The notes: generated by a model from the letters alone, not told the origin. A stretch of 64,000 nt of DNA from a virus (IMGVR_UViG_3300036835_000374:482-64481), one strand, 5' to 3'; positions 1 through 64,000 are shown, numbered from the stretch's first letter. Made by a program: numbers and translations.

Positions 1-106
1 CCACCCCTCCTTCGCCGCCCACTCCTGCTGCGGATCCTCGCCTGGTTGAGGCGCTGGTTCTGATGCAGGCGTGGGCGCACGACAACCATGTGACGGGAGC
101 CTGACC

Positions 107-1153
107 ATGGCCACTCCGATGACCGCGGCGCAGGCCGTCGCCCAGCTGAAGAAGTGGCAGATCCGGTACGTCGAGGTCCCCGGCTGGGCCACCCACAACC
201 GCAACAGCAAGGGCGCCTGGGGACCGCTCAACGGGTTCATCTGGCACCACACCGGAGCCGACGTCCCCGACGCCCGCACCTACGCGGCAGGCACCCTCTA
301 CAACGGCCTCAGCGATCTACCCGGCCCGCTGTGCCACTTCTCCATCGGCCTGGACGGCACCGTGTACCTGGTCGGCTGGGGGCGTGCGAACCATGCGGGC
401 GGCGGCGACCCGGTGACGCTGCAGCATGTGATCGCCGAGGACTACACGGGCCAACTCCACCCCACGAAGGGCAACCTGACAGGGGTGGACGGCAACGCCC
501 ACTTCTACGGGGTGGAGATTCAGTACTCGGGCAGTCACACGATGAGCACCGCCCAGTACGCGACAGCCCGCCGGCTGTCCGCAGCCATCCTCGACTTCCA
601 CGGCTGGTCGGAGAAGTCCGTCATTGCGCACGGCGAGTGGTCGTCGGACAAGTGGGATCCCGGATACGCCCCCGGCAAGATCATGGCCATGCCTGCGGTG
701 CGCGCGGACGTGGCCTCCACCCTCGCAGCAGGACCGACCCAGGAGGATCCCGTGGCCCTGACCCCGGATGACATCAGCAAGGTCGCGGACGCCGTGTTCG
801 CCAAGCTCGCCGCAGGTGGCGGCGTGCTGGAGAACAGCGACCTCGACCGGATCATCGACCGCGACCACGTACCCGCAGCCCGGCCGCCGTACAACAACAG
901 CGACTACTTCGAAGCCGACGGCGTCACCCCGAAGAACACGACGTGGAAGCTCGGGTACGCGCTCCAGACCAACGCCGAGTACAGCCGCCACGCTGTCGCC
1001 CTGCTGGAGGCCATGCAGGACGCTGTGGGCGCGGTCGCTCTGACGGACGAGCAGATCACCGCGATCGCCGTCCAGGTGGCCGCCGCGCCTGGTCTCACCG
1101 ACGTCATCGCCTCGAAGGTCGCCGCGGACATCGCCGGACGCCTCGCCCAATAG
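107..1153 (+). CDS. Endolysin, N-acetylmuramoyl-L-alanine amidase (Amidase_2 type)
   Basis: IWHHT, CHF, GRANHAG, GVEI and IAHGEWSSDKWDP zinc-amidase motifs. GGGAG RBS before ATG 107. Followed by a holin. Confidence 0.9.
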   Translation: MATPMTAAQAVAQLKKWQIRYVEVPGWATHNRNSKGAWGPLNGFIWHHTGADVPDARTYAAGTLYNGLSDLPGPLCHFSIGLDGTVYLVGWGRANHAGGGDPVTLQHVIAEDYTGQLHPTKGNLTGVDGNAHFYGVEIQYSGSHTMSTAQYATARRLSAAILDFHGWSEKSVIAHGEWSSDKWDPGYAPGKIMAMPAVRADVASTLAAGPTQEDPVALTPDDISKVADAVFAKLAAGGGVLENSDLDRIIDRDHVPAARPPYNNSDYFEADGVTPKNTTWKLGYALQTNAEYSRHAVALLEAMQDAVGAVALTDEQITAIAVQVAAAPGLTDVIASKVAADIAGRLAQ

Positions 1154-5609: not shown

Positions 5610-6893
5610 CTACACCGCCTTGAGGACTCGAACAACGGCCTTCTCAGGCGCCATAACAGCAAGCACCTGAGCCGCCACATCCTCGGCACTGTGCTGATAC
5701 AGCCACGTCACCTTGCTGCCGCGGTCGTGCCCCATCACCGTCTGAACGTCCTTCTCCGGAACCCCGAGATCCTTCAACCGGGTAGCGAACACATGCCGCA
5801 GATCATGCACCCGCGGCCACCACTCATCCCGGCCCGTCTCCTCGTTCCGCACCTTCCGTGCCAGGCCAGCAGCCTGAATCGCCGGAATCCACGTCCTGCG
5901 GAAGTTGTGCCGGGTAAGAGTGCCACCGTTGGGCCCGCGGAACACCAGCTCCTCCGGATGCAAGTCCCGCCCGTCCCCGATCGGAGAGACGGTCTCCACC
6001 GGCTTGAAGCGGGCAGCCATCGTCCGCACGGCCTCAACAGCCGCCGGGGTGAGCGGCACCGTGCGGAAGCCGGCGGCCGACTTGGGAGCCGCCTTACGGA
6101 GCAAGGTCCCCCGGTCCTCGGTGAGCACTTCCTTTACCTTGAGGTGCTTAGCTTCCAGGTCAACATGCCCCCACCGCAGGCCGGTCGCCTCACCCCAGCG
6201 CATCCCCGTCTCTTCGAGGAACACGACGAGCGGCCGGTACCACACGCCGACGTGCTCACGGATCAGCGCGCACTGCTCCCGGGTCGGCGGCCGCGAGTCC
6301 TCGGTGTCCTTCTTCGGCGCAGCCCCGATCTCCACCTCGGCGGCCGGGTTGAACGGAATCCGCTTGCCGTCCTTCACCGCGGAGCGCAGCATCTGGTTCA
6401 GCAGCTCCAGCACCTTCTTCTTGGTGTGATAGCCCTTCACCTCCGCCGTGACCCACTTCTGCAGTTCGATGTACTCCAGATCGCACAGACGCCACTGGCC
6501 CCACTTCGGCTCGATGTGATGGCGCCAGTTGGAGAGTTTGCGGTTGGTCGTCGTGACGGCCTTCTTCGGCTGTGCCGGCCACCACAGGTCCCACCACTGG
6601 GACACGGTGATCTCGCCGCGTTTCGGGTCGCCGTACTCGCGGCGCCGGACGCGGGAGCGAACATCGTCGAGGAACGCCTCGGCTGCTTTCTTCCCGCCAT
6701 CGCTGATGGGGAAGTTCTTGGAGCACTGCTTGCCGGCCGGGTCCCTGTAGCGGGCTTGCCACGGGCCGGTGCAGTCCCGCCGTCGCTTGCGGTCGCTGTA
6801 CTTGTCGCCGGGCGGGTACACGTCCATGCAGCGGGCGCAGCCGCATGCCTTGGACGGCACCTGCCGTGGGTTGTTGACGGTCCTACGCCCCAT
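5610..6893 (-). CDS. int: Tyrosine integrase, 427 aa (VWB-like)
   Basis: GMRWGE (R), KSAAG (K), HDLRH, MGH and WLY catalytic set. N-terminal WQARYRDP arm-binding domain. Confidence 0.95.
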   Translation of the reverse strand: MGRRTVNNPRQVPSKACGCARCMDVYPPGDKYSDRKRRRDCTGPWQARYRDPAGKQCSKNFPISDGGKKAAEAFLDDVRSRVRRREYGDPKRGEITVSQWWDLWWPAQPKKAVTTTNRKLSNWRHHIEPKWGQWRLCDLEYIELQKWVTAEVKGYHTKKKVLELLNQMLRSAVKDGKRIPFNPAAEVEIGAAPKKDTEDSRPPTREQCALIREHVGVWYRPLVVFLEETGMRWGEATGLRWGHVDLEAKHLKVKEVLTEDRGTLLRKAAPKSAAGFRTVPLTPAAVEAVRTMAARFKPVETVSPIGDGRDLHPEELVFRGPNGGTLTRHNFRRTWIPAIQAAGLARKVRNEETGRDEWWPRVHDLRHVFATRLKDLGVPEKDVQTVMGHDRGSKVTWLYQHSAEDVAAQVLAVMAPEKAVVRVLKAV

Positions 6894-8616: not shown

Positions 8617-9024
8617 TTGAGCAACAATCCTAGCGATCTCCCCGGCAGAAGCGTCCTCGTGATGACGCTGCCGAAGAAGCCGCTGTCGCCGGTGGATGCG
8701 CAGCGTGCGCGCCGCCGGAATGAGGTGGCGTACGAGACGACGGTCACCGAGAAGGAGCTGCCTCAGACGCATGTCGCGTGGGAGGCGCTGCCCGACCGGG
8801 TGCTGGTGACGGCGACGGACATGAACGTCCTCGCCGACTGGCTGTTCGTGCAGGGCGGCCCGGTCACGACGACGGTTCTGCCGTGGGGTCAGACGGTGTG
8901 GACGCTGCATACGCGGACGTGGTCGGACTCGGACGGGTTTCCGCCGGTGCGGGTGCATGTGTCGGTGACGGTGTCGTCGGACGAGTCGGTGATGGATGAG
9001 GTTCGTCTGGCGGTGCGGCGATGA
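8617..9024 (+). CDS. Hypothetical protein
   Basis: AAGGAG RBS before TTG 8617. Overlaps the next gene. Confidence 0.6.
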   Translation: MSNNPSDLPGRSVLVMTLPKKPLSPVDAQRARRRNEVAYETTVTEKELPQTHVAWEALPDRVLVTATDMNVLADWLFVQGGPVTTTVLPWGQTVWTLHTRTWSDSDGFPPVRVHVSVTVSSDESVMDEVRLAVRR

Positions 9025-38599: not shown

Positions 38600-38616
38600 A
38601 CCTACGATTCAAAGGT
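38600..38616. promoter_or_regulatory. Candidate late-gene motif ACCTACGATTCAAAGGT
   Basis: Near-identical to ACCTTCGATTCGAAGGC at 40822-40838. Confidence 0.55.
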
Positions 38617-40821: not shown

Positions 40822-40838
40822 ACCTTCGATTCGAAGGC
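40822..40838. promoter_or_regulatory. Candidate late-gene motif (palindromic CCTTCGA-T-TCGAAGG)
   Basis: Intergenic, upstream of the portal RBS. Matches 38600-38616. Confidence 0.55.
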
Positions 40839-44258: not shown

Positions 44259-45194
44259 GTGTCTGCTCAGACGATTCTCGACAACTGGATCCCGATCGAA
44301 TGGGATGACCAGGTCATTCAGCGCGTCCTCGCGGACTCGGCCGTCGAACGGTACGCGCATCCGACGAAGATGACGACCGCGACCAAGCGGATCCTGCGCA
44401 GCGCGGGCCTCGACGTGAACGGTGGTTCGACGTACACCGCCGACACCTCCGACAACGACTACGTCACCCTGACCGCCCGCAAGGTCAACAGCCTGTTCGA
44501 GGTAGACGAGGACGACCTGTCCGACGTCGACTCGGTCATCGACACCGTCAAGACCAAGGGCAACGACTGGGCCATCTCGTACGCCGACCACTTCGACAAC
44601 GCGTGCCTCGGCACGTCCGCCGCGTCGAACGGCACCACGATCCTGTACGACTCCGTGTACAAGTCGCTCCGCACCACCAACTCCGCCACGTCGTACACGG
44701 CGGACGACAACTATCTGTCGTGGAACGGCACCCTGCAGATCGCCTCCACCCCCGACGGCACCAGCCTGTACGAGAAGCTGTCCGCGACGTTCGCCCTCGT
44801 CGAAAACGGCAAGTACTGGAGTGCAGCCGATCAGCTCGTCATCGCCTCCCCGTCCTGGCGGTCCAAGCTCCGCAGCTGCCTCGACGGGCAGGGGCGCCCG
44901 ATCTTCACCCAGGGCACCGGCGGCACCCCGGACATGCTGTTCGAGGCGCCGATCGCCTGGTCCCGCGGCTGCAAGGTGTCCGCGACGAACACCCAGTCCC
45001 CGACGGGGAACGGGCTGCTGATCTACGGCAACCGGCAGTTCCTCAAGCGCGGCGACCGCTCCAACGGGGAGATCCTCGTCGACAAGGCGCGTGCGCAGGA
45101 CACCACGGACAACACCGCGGTGAAGATCCGCGTCCGTAAGGGCTTCGTTGTCGGCCACGAGAACGCGCTGGCGGTTTTGGAGGACGTGTCCTGA
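44259..45194 (+). CDS. Major capsid protein (HK97 fold)
   Basis: WIPIEW...VIQ, LTARK and LDGQGRPIF motifs. Position in head module. Confidence 0.88.
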   Translation: MSAQTILDNWIPIEWDDQVIQRVLADSAVERYAHPTKMTTATKRILRSAGLDVNGGSTYTADTSDNDYVTLTARKVNSLFEVDEDDLSDVDSVIDTVKTKGNDWAISYADHFDNACLGTSAASNGTTILYDSVYKSLRTTNSATSYTADDNYLSWNGTLQIASTPDGTSLYEKLSATFALVENGKYWSAADQLVIASPSWRSKLRSCLDGQGRPIFTQGTGGTPDMLFEAPIAWSRGCKVSATNTQSPTGNGLLIYGNRQFLKRGDRSNGEILVDKARAQDTTDNTAVKIRVRKGFVVGHENALAVLEDVS

Positions 45195-47820: not shown

Positions 47821-48384
47821 GTGTCCGTGACTGCAACCAACTTGGTCGAGGGACCTGCCACCCTCTACACCGGAGCGTTCGGTGCGACCGAGCCCGCCGA
47901 CACCGCCGTCAACACCACCCCGGCTGCCTCGTCGTGGACGGACGTCGGCGGCACCCAGGACGGTGTGAAGCTCACCATCGACCAGAGCTATCAGGAGTTG
48001 GAGGTCGACCAGATCGTTGACCGTGTCGGCTCGCGGCTGACGAAGCGCGACTTCATGGTGGAGACGACGCTCGCCGAACCGACCCTGGACAACCTCAGCC
48101 TGGCACTGAACGGCGGCACATCGGCGTCTGGGGCGGGCTACTCGTCGTTCGAGCCGTCGTTCGCGAGTTCGGCGACGCAGCCGACGTACATCGCGCTCCT
48201 CTTCGACGGCTGGGCCCCGGGCGGCGCGTACACGCGGCGGGCCATCGTCCGCAAGGCACTGTCCACGGACGCCACAGAGATGGCGTACACGAAGGACAAG
48301 ATGACCGTGTTCGGCGTCAAGTTCGCAGGTCACTACGTGTCCGCGTCCACGGCCCCTATACACATCGTCGATCAGACCAGCTAG
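47821..48384 (+). CDS. Major tail (tube) protein
   Basis: WTDVGGTQDGV, VDQ and ETTLAEPTLDNL motifs. Confidence 0.85.
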   Translation: MSVTATNLVEGPATLYTGAFGATEPADTAVNTTPAASSWTDVGGTQDGVKLTIDQSYQELEVDQIVDRVGSRLTKRDFMVETTLAEPTLDNLSLALNGGTSASGAGYSSFEPSFASSATQPTYIALLFDGWAPGGAYTRRAIVRKALSTDATEMAYTKDKMTVFGVKFAGHYVSASTAPIHIVDQTS

Positions 48385-57946: not shown

Positions 57947-58441
57947 ATGGACACCTACACCGTGACCGAAGTCCGGGAATACCGGCCCGACAACGAGACT
58001 CCCTGCTGGATGCTGGTCATGGAACGCCCGGACGGCGGCACCCATTTGCAGGTCATGCCGAAGAGCATCATCGACTGGCGGATGGCCGAGTACGGAGTCG
58101 ATGCGGAAACCGCGCTCGACATGGTCCTGCACGAGCCGTTCGCCGCCCGCCTCCGCGCCCCGGGTGAGATCCCGGCGCTGTTCACCGCGGACAGTGTGCA
58201 GGCTGCTCGTGACAGCCACCTGACGCTGGTGCAGCGCGCCAAGGAGGAAGTCGTCCATGTCGTGACTGCCGCGCAGAAGCCGCGGGCCGTGGATCCCCTG
58301 GACGTCATCCGGCAGGCCCCGCGTGCATCCGACCAGATGGTCACCGCGATGCGGCAGTCCGTCGTCGCCGCCCGCGGCAGTCTCCGCAAGACCGCCCCCA
58401 TACGTACTGCCGACTTGGCCAGGGAGGCCCCGCATGCCTGA
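57947..58441 (+). CDS. Hypothetical tail-region protein
   Basis: GAGGAG RBS. Confidence 0.6.
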   Translation: MDTYTVTEVREYRPDNETPCWMLVMERPDGGTHLQVMPKSIIDWRMAEYGVDAETALDMVLHEPFAARLRAPGEIPALFTADSVQAARDSHLTLVQRAKEEVVHVVTAAQKPRAVDPLDVIRQAPRASDQMVTAMRQSVVAARGSLRKTAPIRTADLAREAPHA

Positions 58442-59453
58442 CACCCCGACCACCCGTTTGGGCTTGTACAAGTCTTTGTCTGACGGCTCGGAACTGGTCG
58501 ACTACTCCCAGGACATCGGCCAGAACCTCGACCTGATCGACCTTGCGGCCGGATTCCAGATCGTCACCTCGTCGACGCGCCCGTCCAGCCCGTACTCCGG
58601 GAAGCCGATCGCCGAGTCCGACACCTCGTACCGCACCTACTTCTCCAACGGCACCAGCCCAGCGAGCGCCAGCTGGGTGGAGATACCCAACAGCAGCGGC
58701 ACGTTCGGCGGGAACCTCGCCCTGTCCTCCTCCAGCAGTCTGTCTATCGGCGCCGCCACGCTGACCCGCTCCTCCGGCGGCGCCGTCAGCAGCAACACCA
58801 ACTACCAGGCGTCGCGATCCGACACCACCGACATCGCCTACAGCGCCCTCGTCACCGGAGACACCTTCGACCGAACCCGGATCTACACCGATGGCAAGTT
58901 CGAACTCGGGCCCGGAAACGCCGCACGCGACACCAACCTGTACCGGTCAGCGGCCGACACCCTGAAAACCGACGACAGCCTCATCGTCGGCACCAACCTC
59001 ACCGTGTCCGGGACCGCCGCCATCACCGGAAACCTCACGGTGAGCACGACCACCTGGACGACGTACACGCCGACCGTCGCCAACGGCGGCACCGTCACCT
59101 GGACCACGCGAACCGGCTACTACTACAAGCTCGGCAAGATTGTCTTCGTGTGCATCTACCTCAACGCCAACGCCGCAGGCAGCGGCACCAGCATCGTCAC
59201 CGTCGACATGCCCTCCTCCGTCGACCGAGGCAACCGGCAAGCCCTCACCCTGCATGCCGAAACCATCGGCGCCAACGGCAACGCCACGAGCAGCATTCGC
59301 GGCGGCGAGTGCGTGTTCTTCACCGGCGGCAGCGGCGCAACCTGCGACAGGCTGCGTGTCGACAACGGCACTTCCAACGAGTCCAACATCCAGGGCGTCG
59401 ACCTGCTGTCCGGTGGCCTCATCACCATTCAGGGCTGGTACCGCGAAGCCTAA
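58434..59453 (+). CDS. Tail fibre / receptor-binding protein
   Basis: TTRLGLYK N-terminus, RDTNLYRSAADTLKTDD motif, WTTYTPT...GYYYKLGKIVFV tip domain. Confidence 0.75.
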   Translation: MPDTPTTRLGLYKSLSDGSELVDYSQDIGQNLDLIDLAAGFQIVTSSTRPSSPYSGKPIAESDTSYRTYFSNGTSPASASWVEIPNSSGTFGGNLALSSSSSLSIGAATLTRSSGGAVSSNTNYQASRSDTTDIAYSALVTGDTFDRTRIYTDGKFELGPGNAARDTNLYRSAADTLKTDDSLIVGTNLTVSGTAAITGNLTVSTTTWTTYTPTVANGGTVTWTTRTGYYYKLGKIVFVCIYLNANAAGSGTSIVTVDMPSSVDRGNRQALTLHAETIGANGNATSSIRGGECVFFTGGSGATCDRLRVDNGTSNESNIQGVDLLSGGLITIQGWYREA

Positions 59454-59476
59454 GGGCGCGTTGCAGGTAGGTGTCG

Positions 59477-59707
59477 CTAGCTGAGGTCGTCGCCAGGGTG
59501 CGGAGGCTGCGTCGCGAGATCGGGGCCGCCGCTGGGGGCCGGGGCGGCGCCGGCCTGCTGGAGTCTGCTGTTCCCCTCCTGCGCAGCGGCGAGTTTGCGC
59601 TCCAGGATGTCGTTTTGGGCTTGGAGGAGCAGGTTGGCCTCGAAGAGTTCTCTCACCTTCTTCTGGAAGGTGGGGAACGCGTCCTCGATGCTGATCTGCT
59701 GGCTCAT
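59477..59707 (-). CDS. Small coiled-coil protein
   Basis: MSQQISIEDAF...ENLLLQAQ-like heptads. Confidence 0.6.
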   Translation of the reverse strand: MSQQISIEDAFPTFQKKVRELFEANLLLQAQNDILERKLAAAQEGNSRLQQAGAAPAPSGGPDLATQPPHPGDDLS

Positions 59708-59895
59708 GGCTGCTCCGGCGGGTTGAGGGTGTCGTTGAGGGCGAGGATGGCTTGGGCTACGGCTGCGGTCGCGATGGCTTGCGCTCGTGCGGCGTTGGCG
59801 ATGGCGACGTCGGTGGTGGTGCGCCGGCCTTGGATCTCGGCGAGGGTGTCGCGGGCTGCGATGAGGCTGGCTTCGGCGTCGGAGCGGTGGGTCAC
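59704..59895 (-). CDS. Small Ala-rich protein
   Basis: Coupled on both sides. Confidence 0.5.
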   Translation of the reverse strand: MTHRSDAEASLIAARDTLAEIQGRRTTTDVAIANAARAQAIATAAVAQAILALNDTLNPPEQP

Positions 59896-59897
59896 GG

Positions 59898-60773
59898 TCA
59901 GGCTCCGATCTTCTCGGCGAGCGCACGGTACCGGTCGAGGATGTCCGTGCTCGTCAGGTGGGGCTTCTGCGGCTTGAAGGAGTAGTGGGAGACGAGGGCG
60001 TTGCCGACGAGGATGTTGGAGACGCCGGTCTTCAGCGGGCGGGCGACGGTGTGCCAGTTCTCCTCCTCGATCGTGACCGGGTTCGGGTCGAGGACGCCCG
60101 GCCCGTCGGGGAGGTCGCGGTACATGGAGCCGAGGGACGCGAAGCAGGACACGGAGAACTGGGTGCCAGGCTTGATCGGGAAGCTCTGGTACAGCTCCAG
60201 GTCGTCCGCACGCCCGGCGTCGATCTTGTCCAGTAGCAGTTCGTGGATCTTCACGGCGAATGCCCCGTCGGCCCAGCCGACGGGGTCCATGCAGTACATC
60301 GTGCACCGCCCCCACTCCCGCGGGATCAGCCCCTGCATCTGCGCGAAGTAGGACACGATCGCGTTGTTCCACATCGTCGAGAACACGGCGGCCGGCGCGG
60401 GCTGAGCCAGCCGCTGCGAGACAAGGTTGCTGACCGCGTGCTCGTCGACCCAGACGATGTCGTCATCCATGCGGATGTACACCGTCTGCGGGTCGGTCAT
60501 GTACTCGTAGGCGAAGCCGGTGTTCCGTTGGATGATCCGATTTCTCGGTCGGCCGCCGGGGCGTTCCTTCAGGTGGAACCACGGGTACGTCGCGGCGAGC
60601 TCGTGGGCGTAGGCGATGTCCGCCTCCTGCCCGACCGGCTCGGTGTTCATGTACGCCCAGACTTCGTCGACGAGGCCCCGTTCGACGTCCCGGCGGAGGT
60701 AGTTGATGAGGATGCTGTACGTGGGGATCCTGCCGTAAGGAGTCCACACGATCACCCGGTGGCCATTGATCAT
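59898..60773 (-). CDS. Atypical GT-A-like glycosyltransferase
   Basis: VIVWTPYGR N-terminus, YIRMDDDIVWVD DxD motif, SHYSF C-terminal His. Confidence 0.65.
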   Translation of the reverse strand: MINGHRVIVWTPYGRIPTYSILINYLRRDVERGLVDEVWAYMNTEPVGQEADIAYAHELAATYPWFHLKERPGGRPRNRIIQRNTGFAYEYMTDPQTVYIRMDDDIVWVDEHAVSNLVSQRLAQPAPAAVFSTMWNNAIVSYFAQMQGLIPREWGRCTMYCMDPVGWADGAFAVKIHELLLDKIDAGRADDLELYQSFPIKPGTQFSVSCFASLGSMYRDLPDGPGVLDPNPVTIEEENWHTVARPLKTGVSNILVGNALVSHYSFKPQKPHLTSTDILDRYRALAEKIGA

Positions 60774-60801
60774 AATCGTCCCTTCAGCGAGAGCGCGGGC
60801 G

Positions 60802-61002
60802 TCAGAGAACTTCGTAGATGAGCTTGACCTGCTCCCACGGGACGAAGACCCGGTAGTCCACCTCATTGAGGGTGTGCTCGACAATGACGCCGTGCTCCTG
60901 GAATTCGATCGCGGTGGCGTCATAGGTGTCGCCGAACGTCAGGTGAACGACGCGGAGGTCGGCGCCGTCGGTGAAGCTGATCTGCTTGATGTCAGTGGCC
61001 AT
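60802..61002 (-). CDS. Hypothetical protein
   Basis: 66 aa, GGAGG RBS, coupled. Confidence 0.55.
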   Translation of the reverse strand: MATDIKQISFTDGADLRVVHLTFGDTYDATAIEFQEHGVIVEHTLNEVDYRVFVPWEQVKLIYEVL

Positions 61003-61723
61003 GGCTGGCCTCCGTTCGTTGTCGGTGGAGTTCCCAGACGTCTGGGTGCTTGGCGCGGATCAGCGCCACGGTCTGGTCGTGGATGCTGGCGCGCTGCTCG
61101 TGGAGTTGGCCGGGCCGCATCCGGTAGTAGTAGGTCGGCTCTGCGACTACGCCGTAGTCGGTGTATCCGGCCTTGAGCACTTTGATCCAGAACTCCCAGT
61201 CCTCGGCGCACCCGTAGGAGCCAGGCACGCTCACGTCCGCCGAATAGCCACCGACCGCCTGCCACACCTCGGAACGGATGAGCGCGTAGTTGACAACCGG
61301 CGGCCACACCGCAAAGTCCGCGAGCGTGGCGTGCGTGTCGGAGGCCTGGACGACGTTCTCCCCGCCGATCTGCTGGGCATAGGTGACGACCCAGTCGTGG
61401 CGGGTGAGGGCACGGGCGCACTGTTCGATGCAGTCGAGGCGCAGCCAGTCGTCGGCGTTGGCGGTGAAGATGGCGTCGCAGCCGTCGGCGAGGGCCAGGG
61501 CCGCAGCGTGGTTGAGAGTGGCGGGCCAGCCTTGCCGTTCCTCGTGGCGGACGAGGCGCCGGTACCAGTGGGGCCGGTCGGTGAGGAATTCGGTGGTGCC
61601 GTCGTCGGACGCGTCGTCGACGATGTAGGCGGCACACGGATGGGTTTGGGCGTTGATGCTGGTGAGGCAGGTTTCGATGTAGGGGGCTACGTTGCGAGCG
61701 GGGAGCGCGATACCGATCTTCAT
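60992..61723 (-). CDS. Glycosyltransferase family 2
   Basis: IALPARN, IVDDASDDGT, NADD and EDWEFW motifs. Confidence 0.9.
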   Translation of the reverse strand: MKIGIALPARNVAPYIETCLTSINAQTHPCAAYIVDDASDDGTTEFLTDRPHWYRRLVRHEERQGWPATLNHAAALALADGCDAIFTANADDWLRLDCIEQCARALTRHDWVVTYAQQIGGENVVQASDTHATLADFAVWPPVVNYALIRSEVWQAVGGYSADVSVPGSYGCAEDWEFWIKVLKAGYTDYGVVAEPTYYYRMRPGQLHEQRASIHDQTVALIRAKHPDVWELHRQRTEASHGH

Positions 61724-61923
61724 CCGATGGCCTCCTGCCAGGCGCGGCTGTCGGGGAACCGGTCGGCGGCAAGGACGGCGGCGATAGCGGCGAGGAAGTG
61801 GGCTTGGGCCATGGCGGCTTCGTGCATGGCGCCCGTGACGTCTCCGTTGTGGGCTTCCTGCCATTGGTAGTCGCTGGCGCGCATACGCTCCTCGCCCTCC
61901 CGGTAATGCTCGGGCCCGTTCAT
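61720..61923 (-). CDS. Hypothetical protein
   Basis: MNGPEHYREGEE..., coupled. Confidence 0.55.
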   Translation of the reverse strand: MNGPEHYREGEERMRASDYQWQEAHNGDVTGAMHEAAMAQAHFLAAIAAVLAADRFPDSRAWQEAIG

Positions 61924-62942
61924 ACCGCCGCCCTCTCCGGGACGCGTACGACGGCGTCCCACTGCTGGTTCAACGCCTGCAAAATGCTCCGTGACGCCCG
62001 CGACCGGGCCGCCAACCCCATCCGCTGCCGCAGCCCCGCATCGTCCACCAGCCGCTTCACATACCGGCCGAACAGGTGCTCCTGGCCAGGCGGCACCAAG
62101 AACCCCGTCTCGCCGTGAACGACCGCATCCCGGTACGGGCCGATCCCGGACGCCACCAGCGGGATCCCCAGGAACCCGGCCTCCAGCGCCTTCGTCGCGA
62201 ACTTCGCCCGGTTGAACGCGATGTCCCGGTACGGGGCCACCCACACATCGAACTCAGAGACCACATCCCGGAGGTACTGCTCCGGCTGCGGCACCCAACC
62301 CAACGCACCCACCCGCGTGCCCTTCAACCCGCGCTGCATCGCCTGCTCGGGCGTGATCCCCACCAGCCGCACCATGACCCCGCCCGGCCGACGGTAATCC
62401 GCAATCCGGGACAGGGCCCGCGCCGCCAACGGCAGCTCGGCGACCGTGCTCCCCGACCCGGCCCAGCCGACGTACAGCGGCCGGCCCACCGCCTCGTAGT
62501 CACGCGGGACGCTCAGGTACTGGGCGGGCAGCCCGTTCGGCACCACCCTGACGTCGACCGCGTACTCGCGCAGCACTTCGGCGAGGGGCTCCGAGCAGCA
62601 GGTGACCACATCCGACAGCGCCAGATTCGCGGCCAGCGACTGCTGCATCTCCGGCGTCCACACCGCGACTGCCGCCTGGTTGGCGGGGTCGAGGTGGAAG
62701 TAGTCGTCATCCAAGTCCAGCACGAGCCTGATCCCGCGCTCCTTCAACGCCCGCCACGCCTTGCTCGCCCCCGGCATCGCGATACGACACCCGATCATCG
62801 CGTCCAACGGTTCCTCATCCGGCGGCCGGCGCTGCCCCATCGACATGTGATGGCCGAGCCAGGACAGGCCGAGAGCGACGAGGTGGCCGCGGTACCAGCC
62901 GGATCCGGCTGCGTCGGCGGTCCAGATGTGCACGCGCGTCAT
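61920..62942 (-). CDS. Glycosyltransferase, GT-B fold (family 4-like)
   Basis: DLDDDYF, VVPNGLP, AKFATKALEAGFLGIPLVAS and HGETGFLV motifs. Confidence 0.9.
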   Translation of the reverse strand: MTRVHIWTADAAGSGWYRGHLVALGLSWLGHHMSMGQRRPPDEEPLDAMIGCRIAMPGASKAWRALKERGIRLVLDLDDDYFHLDPANQAAVAVWTPEMQQSLAANLALSDVVTCCSEPLAEVLREYAVDVRVVPNGLPAQYLSVPRDYEAVGRPLYVGWAGSGSTVAELPLAARALSRIADYRRPGGVMVRLVGITPEQAMQRGLKGTRVGALGWVPQPEQYLRDVVSEFDVWVAPYRDIAFNRAKFATKALEAGFLGIPLVASGIGPYRDAVVHGETGFLVPPGQEHLFGRYVKRLVDDAGLRQRMGLAARSRASRSILQALNQQWDAVVRVPERAAV

Positions 62943-62944
62943 GA

Positions 62945-63328
62945 CTACGGCGCCTTCGGCCTGCTGGCGTGTACTGGCTGTCCGCCGCCGTCGGTCTTGG
63001 GCTCCTCGTCGACGAGCGTGTACGTCTTGCCGCCGTCGGTGGACATGGCGCGCGAGTCGCGAGTGTTCTGCCAGATCGGGTAGCCGCTCATCTCGGATCG
63101 GTCTTCCCACTCGGCGGGATCGTCGGTGAGTGGGCTGAGGGGCTGGTAGCGCAGCAGCTTCTCCAGTACGACGGTGGAGTGCTCGGCGGAGAACCCGCTG
63201 TGTCCCATTTCCGCGAAGGCTGCGATGACCTTGCACAGGCCGTTGGTGAGCCATTCGTCTTCGCCGATGAGGGCGAGTTCGCGGCGGGCATGGTCTACGA
63301 GCGGGCTGTCGGTTGCGGTACGGGCCAT
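62945..63328 (-). CDS. Conserved-looking phage hypothetical protein
   Basis: GHSGFSA...PLSPLTDDPAEW...WQNTR motif. Confidence 0.6.
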   Translation of the reverse strand: MARTATDSPLVDHARRELALIGEDEWLTNGLCKVIAAFAEMGHSGFSAEHSTVVLEKLLRYQPLSPLTDDPAEWEDRSEMSGYPIWQNTRDSRAMSTDGGKTYTLVDEEPKTDGGGQPVHASRPKAP

Positions 63329-63346
63329 GGGCGCGGGCTCCTGTGG

Positions 63347-63586
63347 TCAGTGGTGGGAGAGCAGGAAGAGGGTCCGCTTGCCGAAGCAGAGGCCGATTTC
63401 CCACTTGCTGCCGTCGCGGGCTATGTGGAGTGGTGTGAGGTGGAACTGCCACAGCCAGCGGCTGCGACGGTAGGTGCGGTAGCCACGCGGCTGGACGTGC
63501 CCGAGGTAGAGGGCCTTCCAGTGCCAGGCCTTGTCACCTCGCCAGATGGTCTTGAGGTGGCGCGTGCTCTCAGCGGTCGTCGACAT
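63347..63586 (-). CDS. Hypothetical Trp/His-rich protein
   Basis: 79 aa, in the minus-strand operon. Confidence 0.5.
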   Translation of the reverse strand: MSTTAESTRHLKTIWRGDKAWHWKALYLGHVQPRGYRTYRRSRWLWQFHLTPLHIARDGSKWEIGLCFGKRTLFLLSHH

Positions 63587-63602
63587 GGATGCGCTCTTTC
63601 GG

Positions 63603-64000
63603 TCAGGCGGCCGGGGCGTAGCTGGGGAGCCATTGGGTGGCGTAGTAGTCGACGGTGCGCCGGATGCCTTCCTTCAGCGGCACGAAGTCCGCGGCGGTCA
63701 TGCCGATCTGCGCGAGCGTCGACGTGTCCGACGAGACCACCGCGTTCGGCACCTCACCCGGGCGCATCGGCAGATGCTTGATCCCCACCGGCTCCCGCGC
63801 GGTGACCTCGGCCGCGTACTCGGCGACGAGGCGAGCGATGTCGTTGACGGTGACCGACGTGAGCGGGCCGACCTCCACCGGGTCCTTCGTGGGGCCGCCA
63901 GTCGCAGCGTTGTGTTCGAGGGCCTCGACGAAGACGCGGGCGACGTCCTCGACGTACACGCAGTCGGAGACCTGGGTGCCGTCGCCGTACACCTCAATGT
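63603..64000 (-). CDS. NAD-dependent epimerase/dehydratase (C-terminal part; 5' end outside the window)
   Basis: IEVYGDGTQVSDCVYVEDVA and LPMRPGE motifs of extended SDRs. Confidence 0.85.
   Translation of the reverse strand, partial: IEVYGDGTQVSDCVYVEDVARVFVEALEHNAATGGPTKDPVEVGPLTSVTVNDIARLVAEYAAEVTAREPVGIKHLPMRPGEVPNAVVSSDTSTLAQIGMTAADFVPLKEGIRRTVDYYATQWLPSYAPAA

Follow-up and report, generated by a model that had tools for sequence, protein, structure and literature searches.

Gene content and organization of the operon

We analysed a 64,000-nucleotide stretch of viral DNA (IMGVR_UViG_3300036835_000374:482-64481, hereafter the window), in particular the leftward genes that fill its end, from position 59477 to 64000. 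Each gene touches its neighbour or shares a few bases with it, so these genes form one tightly packed operon and one transcription unit. As judged from sequence, the operon encodes one nucleotide-sugar-modifying enzyme of the short-chain dehydrogenase/reductase type (SDR) and three soluble Leloir-type glycosyltransferases (GTs), and it is placed between tail fibre and lysis genes. We propose that it is a cassette for cytoplasmic O-glycosylation of virion proteins, and we put the probability of this reading at about one half.

Because high-GC DNA yields many spurious open reading frames (ORFs), real frames were picked by GC content of the third codon position (GC3), together with ORF listing. 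By this measure, the minus strand holds every real gene from 59477 to the window end. The order of transcription is SDR, 79-aa ORF, 127-aa ORF, GT4, 67-aa ORF, GT2, 66-aa ORF, DxD protein, 63-aa ORF and 76-aa ORF. The operon extends about 2.3 kb past the window, to window-equivalent position ~66300 (L001 ~8783), and this part contains, upstream of the SDR gene, an HNH endonuclease gene and then four small ORFs. The rightward genes which the cassette faces encode major head, major tail, tape measure, Dit, minor tail and fibre proteins.

An initial annotation of this DNA had described a sugar-modification cassette that consists of an NAD-dependent epimerase/dehydratase, a GT-B enzyme, a GT2 enzyme and an atypical DxD enzyme interspersed with small ORFs, runs antisense and head-on to the tail genes and continues past the window. 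All these elements and their arrangement were recovered here. The supposed pathway, in which the phage makes a nucleotide sugar and builds an oligosaccharide, agrees with an SDR and three GT families encoded in one operon on phage DNA. The four sugar enzymes thus stand, but the operon is not purely a sugar cassette, as a Tad3-family gene and the HNH endonuclease gene, which are independent passengers, lie inside it.

None of the cassette proteins has a membrane-span-like segment (highest 19-residue Kyte-Doolittle hydropathy below 1.6), and no flippase or bactoprenol-type component is found in the cassette. For these reasons its chemistry is predicted to be cytoplasmic. A promoter and terminator consensus scan of the block gave nothing beyond shuffled expectation, and RNA folding at the convergent junction (59430-59510) revealed no terminator-like hairpin (z 0.68).

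The virus record from which the window is taken has 67,330 bases and 68.7% G+C; the window covers 64 kb of it. Record ends (G000 1-144 and 67187-67330) repeat each other over 144 bases with one mismatch. As its first 144 bases recur at its end, the record represents a circular assembly with 67,186 unique bases, although it is listed as linear in IMG/VR; the CheckV estimate of completeness is 85%, yet the ends overlap. Beyond the divergent intergenic region at the operon start, the next genes run rightward and form a lysis module (G000 66956 across the junction to window 104, then window 71-1153), coding for a 271-aa papain-like (C1-type) cysteine peptidase, a separate 360-aa endolysin and a holin. 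The block is phage DNA, as the contig forms a closed circle and late phage genes stand on both sides of the block. This excludes the case, named by the initial annotation as one that would refute its reading, of a block of host DNA past an att site.

Close homologues of the phage genes occur in prophages of many Streptomyces genomes, so the host is Streptomyces. The phage carries an integrase gene (5610-6893), and its relatives are found integrated in Streptomyces genomes, for example in Streptomyces triculaminicus JCM 4242 and S. capoamus JCM 4253. Sequence identical to the record is present in soil metagenome runs (six, guessed to be DNA). No close relative was found by megablast or blastn among 50,697 phage records, where the sole nucleotide match joined the SDR 3' end to Streptomyces jumbo-type phages.

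SDR, GT4 and GT2 enzymes

The SDR gene (minus strand) has its C-terminal 131 codons in the window, at 63603-64000, and runs on to window-equivalent 64562 (L001:6085-7044), giving a protein of 319 aa. The window fragment alone matches PF01370 (24.5 bits, cut-off 20.9), and at full length the SDR matches phrog_540 (nucleotide-sugar epimerase) at E 3e-54. Its best solved relatives in PDB are UDP-hexose 4-epimerases (down to E 4e-24), with top match 6wj9, which we take to be the UDP-GlcNAc 4-epimerase PelX. GxxGxxG (G7, G10) and YxxxK (Y125/K129) motifs are invariant among 26 family members. The SDR gene directly adjoins the DxD gene even in loci without GT4.

In three related phages (L013:4879-6546, L029:4604-6280, L066:4271-5944), the SDR holds an in-frame intein of about 238 residues, with Cys as first residue, a His-Asn end followed by Ser, and a LAGLIDADG endonuclease motif. 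The window's own SDR is intein-free. The insertion point is the invariant PYG/SKVRK motif, and because the intein sits there, this site is predicted to be functionally critical.

The GT4 enzyme (GT-B fold, 340 aa, 61920-62942, minus strand) matches PF13692 (Glyco_trans_1_4; 54.8 bits, cut-off 27) and PF00534 (Glycos_transf_1; 45.9 bits, cut-off 26.4) over its C-terminal Rossmann domain, and it also matches phrog_7162 (E 3e-37). Its N-terminal Glyco_transf_4 domain scores 24.5 bits, just under the cut-off of 28.5. The GT2 enzyme (243 aa, 60992-61723, minus strand) matches PF00535 (Glycos_transf_2; 58 bits, cut-off 23.3) and phrog_2456. DDASDD, ADD (DxD-type) and ED motifs are seen in its translation, and no C-terminal membrane spans were found.

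The DxD protein as a GT-A glycosyltransferase

The DxD protein (291 aa, 59898-60773, minus strand) has no Pfam match at E <= 0.1 and no NCBIfam match, and its only profile match is phrog_4447 'glycosyltransferase' (E 0.004). Its AlphaFold (AF2) model has predicted local distance difference test (pLDDT) 96.6 and predicted template modelling score (pTM) 0.93. GT-A structures match this model at Z 12-13.6 over about 200 residues with none standing out, and include SpsA, Mnn9, hyaluronan synthase, GalNAc-T1, GnT-I and the wall-teichoic-acid transferases TarP (Z 12.9), TarS (12.1) and RmlT (12.7). GlfT2 is among the top Foldseek matches. In an alignment of 84 DxD sequences, R15, D103, D104, D105, H177, E238 and H263 are invariant. 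Given the confident model, the broad GT-A matches and the invariant DDD motif, the protein is a GT-A glycosyltransferase of an uncurated, mainly viral family.

This family comprises 476 proteins in a 90% collection, all unnamed, and 801 clusters in a 50% library. Most members are viral, some of them from metagenome-assembled genomes (MAGs) of giant viruses. The nearest predicted structures are viral as well (Pithovirus protein, TMq 0.77), and the Atlas clusters are 64-89% viral. Longer members combine this domain with a second one, of GT2, GT4, methyltransferase or sulfotransferase type.

A gene for UDP-galactopyranose mutase (GLF/UGM, PF03275) occurs in 27 of 68 distant bacterial and archaeal DxD loci from several phyla, mostly adjacent to the DxD gene; in Lacipirellula and Nostoc it lies next door. 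A gene present at most once per genome is expected in well under 1% of random 18-kb stretches. Mutase-bearing loci are L148, L181 and 25 other cellular ones (L143-L210), along with viral L081 and L085. Because the mutase adjoins distant homologues, this linkage suggests that the DxD family includes galactofuranosyltransferases. For the phage enzyme itself, UDP-galactofuranose as donor is weakened by the absence of UGM from five Streptomyces genomes that carry the prophage. The mutase neighbours in distant loci, together with the SDR as constant partner in the phage clade, point to galacto-configured donors for the family, one of which the phage SDR may supply. Since the Streptomyces lysogens lack UGM and the phage clade pairs DxD with SDR, the donor of the phage enzyme is probably a pyranose 4-epimer, not galactofuranose.

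A fixed island with exchangeable content

To estimate conservation of the cassette, window proteins were compared by tblastn with 80 viral and 80 genome loci found through the DxD protein. Counts below refer to those 62 DxD-anchored loci, from viral contigs and Streptomyces genomes, in which DxD identity is 45% or higher. Of these, 59 contain the SDR, 58 the GT4 and 23 the GT2, so that SDR, GT4 and DxD appear to be the core of the cassette and GT2 an optional member. The order SDR, GT4, DxD, 76-aa ORF, with a second SDR and GT2 inserted before DxD in about one third of cases, is kept in 54 loci. In 51 loci, the tail genes (fibre, minor tail, Dit and tape measure) run head-on towards the cassette. 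Opposite orientation is a conserved feature of the lineage and not a sign of recent moron insertion.

Sampling from the tail side gave a similar picture. Among 45 loci found through Dit, 29 had enough sequence, and all except one contain a glycosylation cassette at this position: 20 of DxD type and 8 of an alternative type. The sole locus without cassette is a distant outgroup. Alternative cassettes (e.g. L092:16135-20305, L117:17066-20308, L123:15821-21192) contain a GT2, an S-adenosylmethionine (SAM)-methyltransferase, a GT-A-like protein, a 2-oxoglutarate (2OG)-Fe(II) oxygenase, a GT4 and sometimes a dehydratase-like SDR. Their oxygenase is of the prolyl-hydroxylase-like PF13640 type, which hints at hydroxylation ahead of glycosylation, and their methyltransferase belongs to a small-molecule class, not to C5 DNA methyltransferases.

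Since 28 of 29 loci are filled, and with two cassette types, the site is best described as a fixed glycosylation island with exchangeable content. The SDR-GT4-DxD core is apparently fixed here in a large lineage of temperate Streptomyces siphophages. Such fixed presence with variable content is, on comparative grounds, unlike a sporadic conversion moron.

Virion proteins as proposed acceptors

The initial annotation had left virion glycosylation, lysogenic surface conversion and DNA modification all open. DNA is now an unlikely target (see below), and virion glycosylation is favoured over lysogenic conversion on purely comparative evidence. In the proposed pathway, the SDR, most like UDP-hexose 4-epimerases, would supply an unusual UDP-sugar, probably galacto-configured. 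One of the transferases would start a short O-linked glycan on virion proteins and the others would extend it, the whole assembly taking place in cytoplasm during lytic growth. The most likely acceptors would be Ser/Thr residues exposed at the C-termini of the major tail and capsid proteins, or else the fibre, which is rich in Ser/Thr. The outcome would be glycan-coated particles, as for mycobacteriophages Che8, Corndog and Myrna.

Placement of homologues in other phages leans this way. In viral contig L031, homologues of DxD (54% identical), GT2 (68%), SDR (59%) and GT4 (42%) are co-oriented and directly upstream of terS, terL and portal genes. Streptomyces phage KimJongPhill similarly has an SDR-like gene, a methyltransferase gene and a GT4 gene (33% identical) directly upstream of terS. 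This is the position held by Che8 genes 108-110, proven in virion glycosylation, at the right genome end before terS (PMC12363180). Phage JustBecause encodes an SDR 69% identical to that of the window, beside another GT. Since no tyrosine or serine integrase was found in KimJongPhill or JustBecause, genes of the cassette type also serve phages that probably cannot lysogenise. The GT beside the JustBecause SDR, gp157, was considered as a DxD relative and rejected, as neither BLASTP nor profile comparison detected similarity. Giant viruses glycosylate their capsids, and the mostly viral DxD family, with giant-virus members, is therefore also counted towards a virion target.

A further indication comes from the palindromic motif CCTaCGATTCaAAGG, of which the genome has four copies. 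One precedes terS (window 38601-38615), one precedes the portal gene (40823-40837), and two (G000 66900-66914 and 66932-66946; L001 ~8901-8947) lie in the divergent region, which the glycosylation operon leaves leftward and the peptidase/lysin genes leave rightward. These last two copies, spaced by 32 bases, are kept ahead of the lysin gene in relatives. The motif is probably a late-gene control site, and its placement hints at late co-regulation of the operon.

Subunit ends are also compatible with the proposal. The major tail protein (47821-48384) ends in ...VDQTS and the major capsid protein (44259-45194) in ...EDVS; the terminal TS of the tail tube is kept in most of the lineage. In Che8, capsid and tail tube end in ...KTGS and ...SDGS, respectively, and the glycans are reportedly located at these C-termini.

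Several points weigh against virion glycosylation. Most members of the lineage have C-terminal Ser/Thr whichever cassette type they carry, so this trait is compatible and not discriminating. The CCTaCGATTCaAAGG pair adjoins the lysin start, lies at least ~115 bp from the leftward operon start, and may act rightward only. BLASTP of every cassette protein against Che8 gp107-111 gave nothing better than E 0.1, and tblastn of GT4, GT2 and DxD proteins matched no mycobacteriophage. As no homology between the transferases is detectable, the Che8 parallel is one of function only. The SDR reaction (4-epimerase, dehydratase or other) is not certain either, given that the family has an invariant V-G-N at the usual catalytic Ser/Thr, where solved epimerases have S-S/A and where HMMER aligns the sequences with gaps and with low confidence. 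Finally, the phage is temperate, and a cassette convergent on tail genes beside a receptor-binding gene is the classic P22-type layout of serotype converters.

Alternative targets

The last two points speak for conversion of the host surface, either lysogenic or at the time of infection. Soluble transferases would then decorate a lipid-linked precursor of a wall glycopolymer, for example of teichoic or teichulosonic type, on the cytoplasmic face, after the model of prophage-encoded TarP in Staphylococcus aureus. The altered wall would mask the receptor of the phage itself against superinfection and re-adsorption of progeny. Relatives of the phage are integrated prophages, the cassette adjoins the receptor-binding fibre gene in opposite orientation, as in P22-type converters, and the DxD model matches TarP, TarS and RmlT as well as any GT-A enzyme. 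We regard this explanation as the main rival, yet as clearly less likely than virion glycosylation. Known conversions add a single residue, whereas here two to three transferases and one to two SDRs (methyltransferase and oxygenase in alternative sets) would build an oligosaccharide. The island is fixed in the lineage and not sporadic; late tail genes border it on one side and late lysis genes on the other, the integrase gene is about 7 kb away, and attP does not adjoin it. Its homologues head the packaging operon in L031 and KimJongPhill and occur in integrase-less phages. Moreover, at least one fibre type occurs with two cassette types, in an underpowered comparison (29 fibres in 23 clusters, one of which spans both types). 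If wall conversion proved true, it would be the first example of prophage-driven wall-glycan conversion in Streptomyces.

We consider it quite improbable that the acceptor is some other cytoplasmic molecule, such as a host or non-structural phage protein, a lipid or a small molecule, modified for takeover or counter-defence. An antibiotic or an immune signal might for instance be inactivated, with the operon shared with a Tad3-family gene. The presence in the operon of an anti-defence gene (Tad3 family) and of other small accessory ORFs, and the solubility of every cassette enzyme, agree with this, as does the fact that Streptomyces GT-B enzymes often glycosylate small molecules. However, the Tad3-family gene occurs in only 3 of the 62 cassettes and is thus an insertion, not a functional partner. 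Three GT families and a dedicated sugar-nucleotide enzyme suit glycan assembly better than a single detoxifying transfer, and distant DxD relatives are fused to or located beside enzymes of polysaccharide type (GT2, GT4, methyltransferase, sulfotransferase, UDP-galactopyranose mutase).

That the cassette glycosylates bases of the phage DNA to protect it from restriction is hardly credible: some phages do glycosylate hydroxymethylated bases with GT-A or GT-B enzymes, and the alternative cassettes of relatives combine 2OG-Fe(II) oxygenase with methyltransferase, a combination that also occurs in TET-type DNA hypermodification, but a modifiable base is needed and the enzymes to make it were not found, with neither thymidylate-synthase-family hydroxymethylase (PF00303) nor TGT/DpdA (PF01702) anywhere in the 67-kb genome, neither an oxygenase nor a DNA methyltransferase in this cassette, an oxygenase of PF13640 type and a methyltransferase of small-molecule and not C5 DNA class in the relatives, and a phage that integrates and replicates as prophage on host nucleotide pools.

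Taken together with the virion-glycosylation proposal, the comparative data lead us to a more specific and more tentative one, which we hold at somewhat less than even odds. Where the tail module ends, the whole lineage of temperate Streptomyces siphophages would carry a virion-glycan island, fixed in place but interchangeable, built around an unclassified, mainly viral GT-A family that is possibly a new galactosyl- or galactofuranosyltransferase family.

Comparison with known systems

Putative transferases in some Streptomyces phages are said to have been noted by Freeman et al. 2023 (Cell Host Microbe 31:1216). Genes for virion glycosylation are described for mycobacteriophages Che8 (gp108-110), Corndog and Myrna (PMC12363180, PMC11600133 and PMC13313380). 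These systems and the window cassette have in common two to four clustered soluble phage transferases, an actinobacteriophage background and accessory sugar-tailoring enzymes. With Che8 in particular, the pre-terminase position of genes 108-110 is matched by the L031 and KimJongPhill homologues, and capsid and tail-tube proteins end in Ser. The transferases of the window cassette show no detectable homology to those of Che8. In contrast to Che8, this cassette includes a dedicated SDR nucleotide-sugar enzyme and a GT-A enzyme whose family is unclassified, and it converges on tail genes instead of being co-oriented at the genome end, in a phage of Streptomyces. Glycans are proven for Che8 and are predicted for the window system. 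Cluster O mycobacteriophages, with sets of a methyltransferase and three GTs (PMC11600133), resemble the island in being fixed, multi-enzyme and variable in content.

The gtrABC cassettes of P22 (Salmonella) and SfV (Shigella) are likewise carried by temperate phages, beside the receptor-binding gene and in opposite orientation (the P22 layout), but the window cassette lacks membrane proteins of GtrA, GtrB or GtrC type. Periplasmic conversion of Gtr type was ruled out, as no cassette protein has a 19-residue hydropathy window above 1.6. S. aureus prophage TarP is a soluble GT-A enzyme whose fold is similar to the DxD model (Z 12.9). Both Gtr and TarP systems differ from the window cassette, which has several transferases and an SDR in place of single-sugar addition, is fixed in its lineage and is not adjacent to attP/int.

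Chloroviruses encode GT-A enzymes that glycosylate their major capsid protein. As in giant-virus capsid glycosylation, the window system has virus-encoded nucleotide-sugar enzymes and soluble GT-A enzymes, is cytoplasmic and independent of host pathways, and DxD-family members are present in giant-virus MAGs and in Pithovirus. Giant viruses differ in infecting eukaryotes, in acceptors and in glycans, and identity is at most ~30%. Mutase-linked galactofuranosyltransferases such as mycobacterial GlfT2 (a GT2 enzyme) find a parallel in the mutase linkage of 27 of 68 distant cellular DxD loci; unlike GlfT2, the DxD protein has no sequence-level GT2 membership and is paired with an SDR in the phage clade.

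Passenger genes and small ORFs

The 127-aa ORF (62945-63328, minus strand) matches Pfam family PF25185 (Tad3) with 111.7 bits (cut-off 27, E 2.3e-32) over profile positions 2-112 of 119. Its model has one PDB match with probability above 0.3, namely chains D and B of 9b7d (Tad3 in ThsB-Tad3 complex), with probability 1.00 and 0.99, respectively, TMq 0.54 and root-mean-square deviation 3.8 over 111 aligned columns. Tad3 is a direct inhibitor of the type I Thoeris sensor ThsB (PMC13728456, PMC13402655). The window protein shares fold and profile with Tad3 but is shorter (127 against ~190 aa) and about 25% identical. It is thus a predicted inhibitor of ThsB and its gene a candidate anti-Thoeris gene. 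The few related cassettes that have this gene carry it at varying places; because of this rarity and variable position it appears to be a sporadic insertion, a passenger and not a functional partner of the cassette. ThsB_TIR domains were found in 7 of 61 sampled Streptomyces genomes.

The HNH endonuclease gene (L001:7046-7630, window-equivalent 64564-65148, minus strand) ends one base upstream of the SDR start. The protein bears repeated Cys-rich zinc-ribbon-like motifs. HNH genes hold the equivalent place in L033, L108 and L137, and the site may be a hot spot for homing endonucleases.

The remaining ORFs of the operon are small and all on the minus strand. The 76-aa coiled-coil ORF (59477-59707), the last gene of the operon, lies in a high-GC3 frame. 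Between its end and the stop of the tail fibre gene (339 aa, 58434-59453, plus strand; phrog_16641 tail fiber), the last of the rightward tail module, there are 23 bases. It has tblastn matches in 29 of the 62 DxD-anchored loci and in alternative-cassette loci, and it is kept beside the fibre gene in relatives of either cassette type; profile searches gave no significant family match. The 63-aa ORF (59704-59895), with a 4-base overlap between its stop codon and the start of the gene that follows, has no Pfam match and a homologue in L086. No family match was obtained for the 66-aa ORF (60802-61002, GC3 0.85) or for the 79-aa ORF (63347-63586). The 67-aa ORF (61720-61923) matches phrog_16141, and its relatives turn up in alternative cassettes too.

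Biological implications

Virion glycosylation by phage-encoded transferases is already known. What is new here is a conserved island with its particular anatomy and interchangeable content, an SDR dedicated to it, a GT-A family that is unclassified and linked to the mutase, and the candidate anti-Thoeris gene embedded among these genes. This last gene is at hand as a possible anti-Thoeris factor of phages that infect actinomycetes. The GT-A family, with ~800 clusters at 50% identity, most of them viral, is large and uncharacterised, and a testable prediction can now be made of its donor.

To our knowledge, a few mycobacteriophages are the only phages for which virion glycosylation has been demonstrated. 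Their glycans shield particles from antibodies. If our more specific proposal is true, the island would represent the first virion glycosylation system outside mycobacteriophages, and phages would exchange glycan types much as bacteria exchange O-antigen types. It would offer a second, independent system for the environmental roles of virion glycans, such as stability, adhesion and evasion of recognition by hosts or predators, in genetically tractable Streptomyces, in an island that is fixed in its lineage and yet variable, and with enzymes unrelated to the mycobacterial ones.

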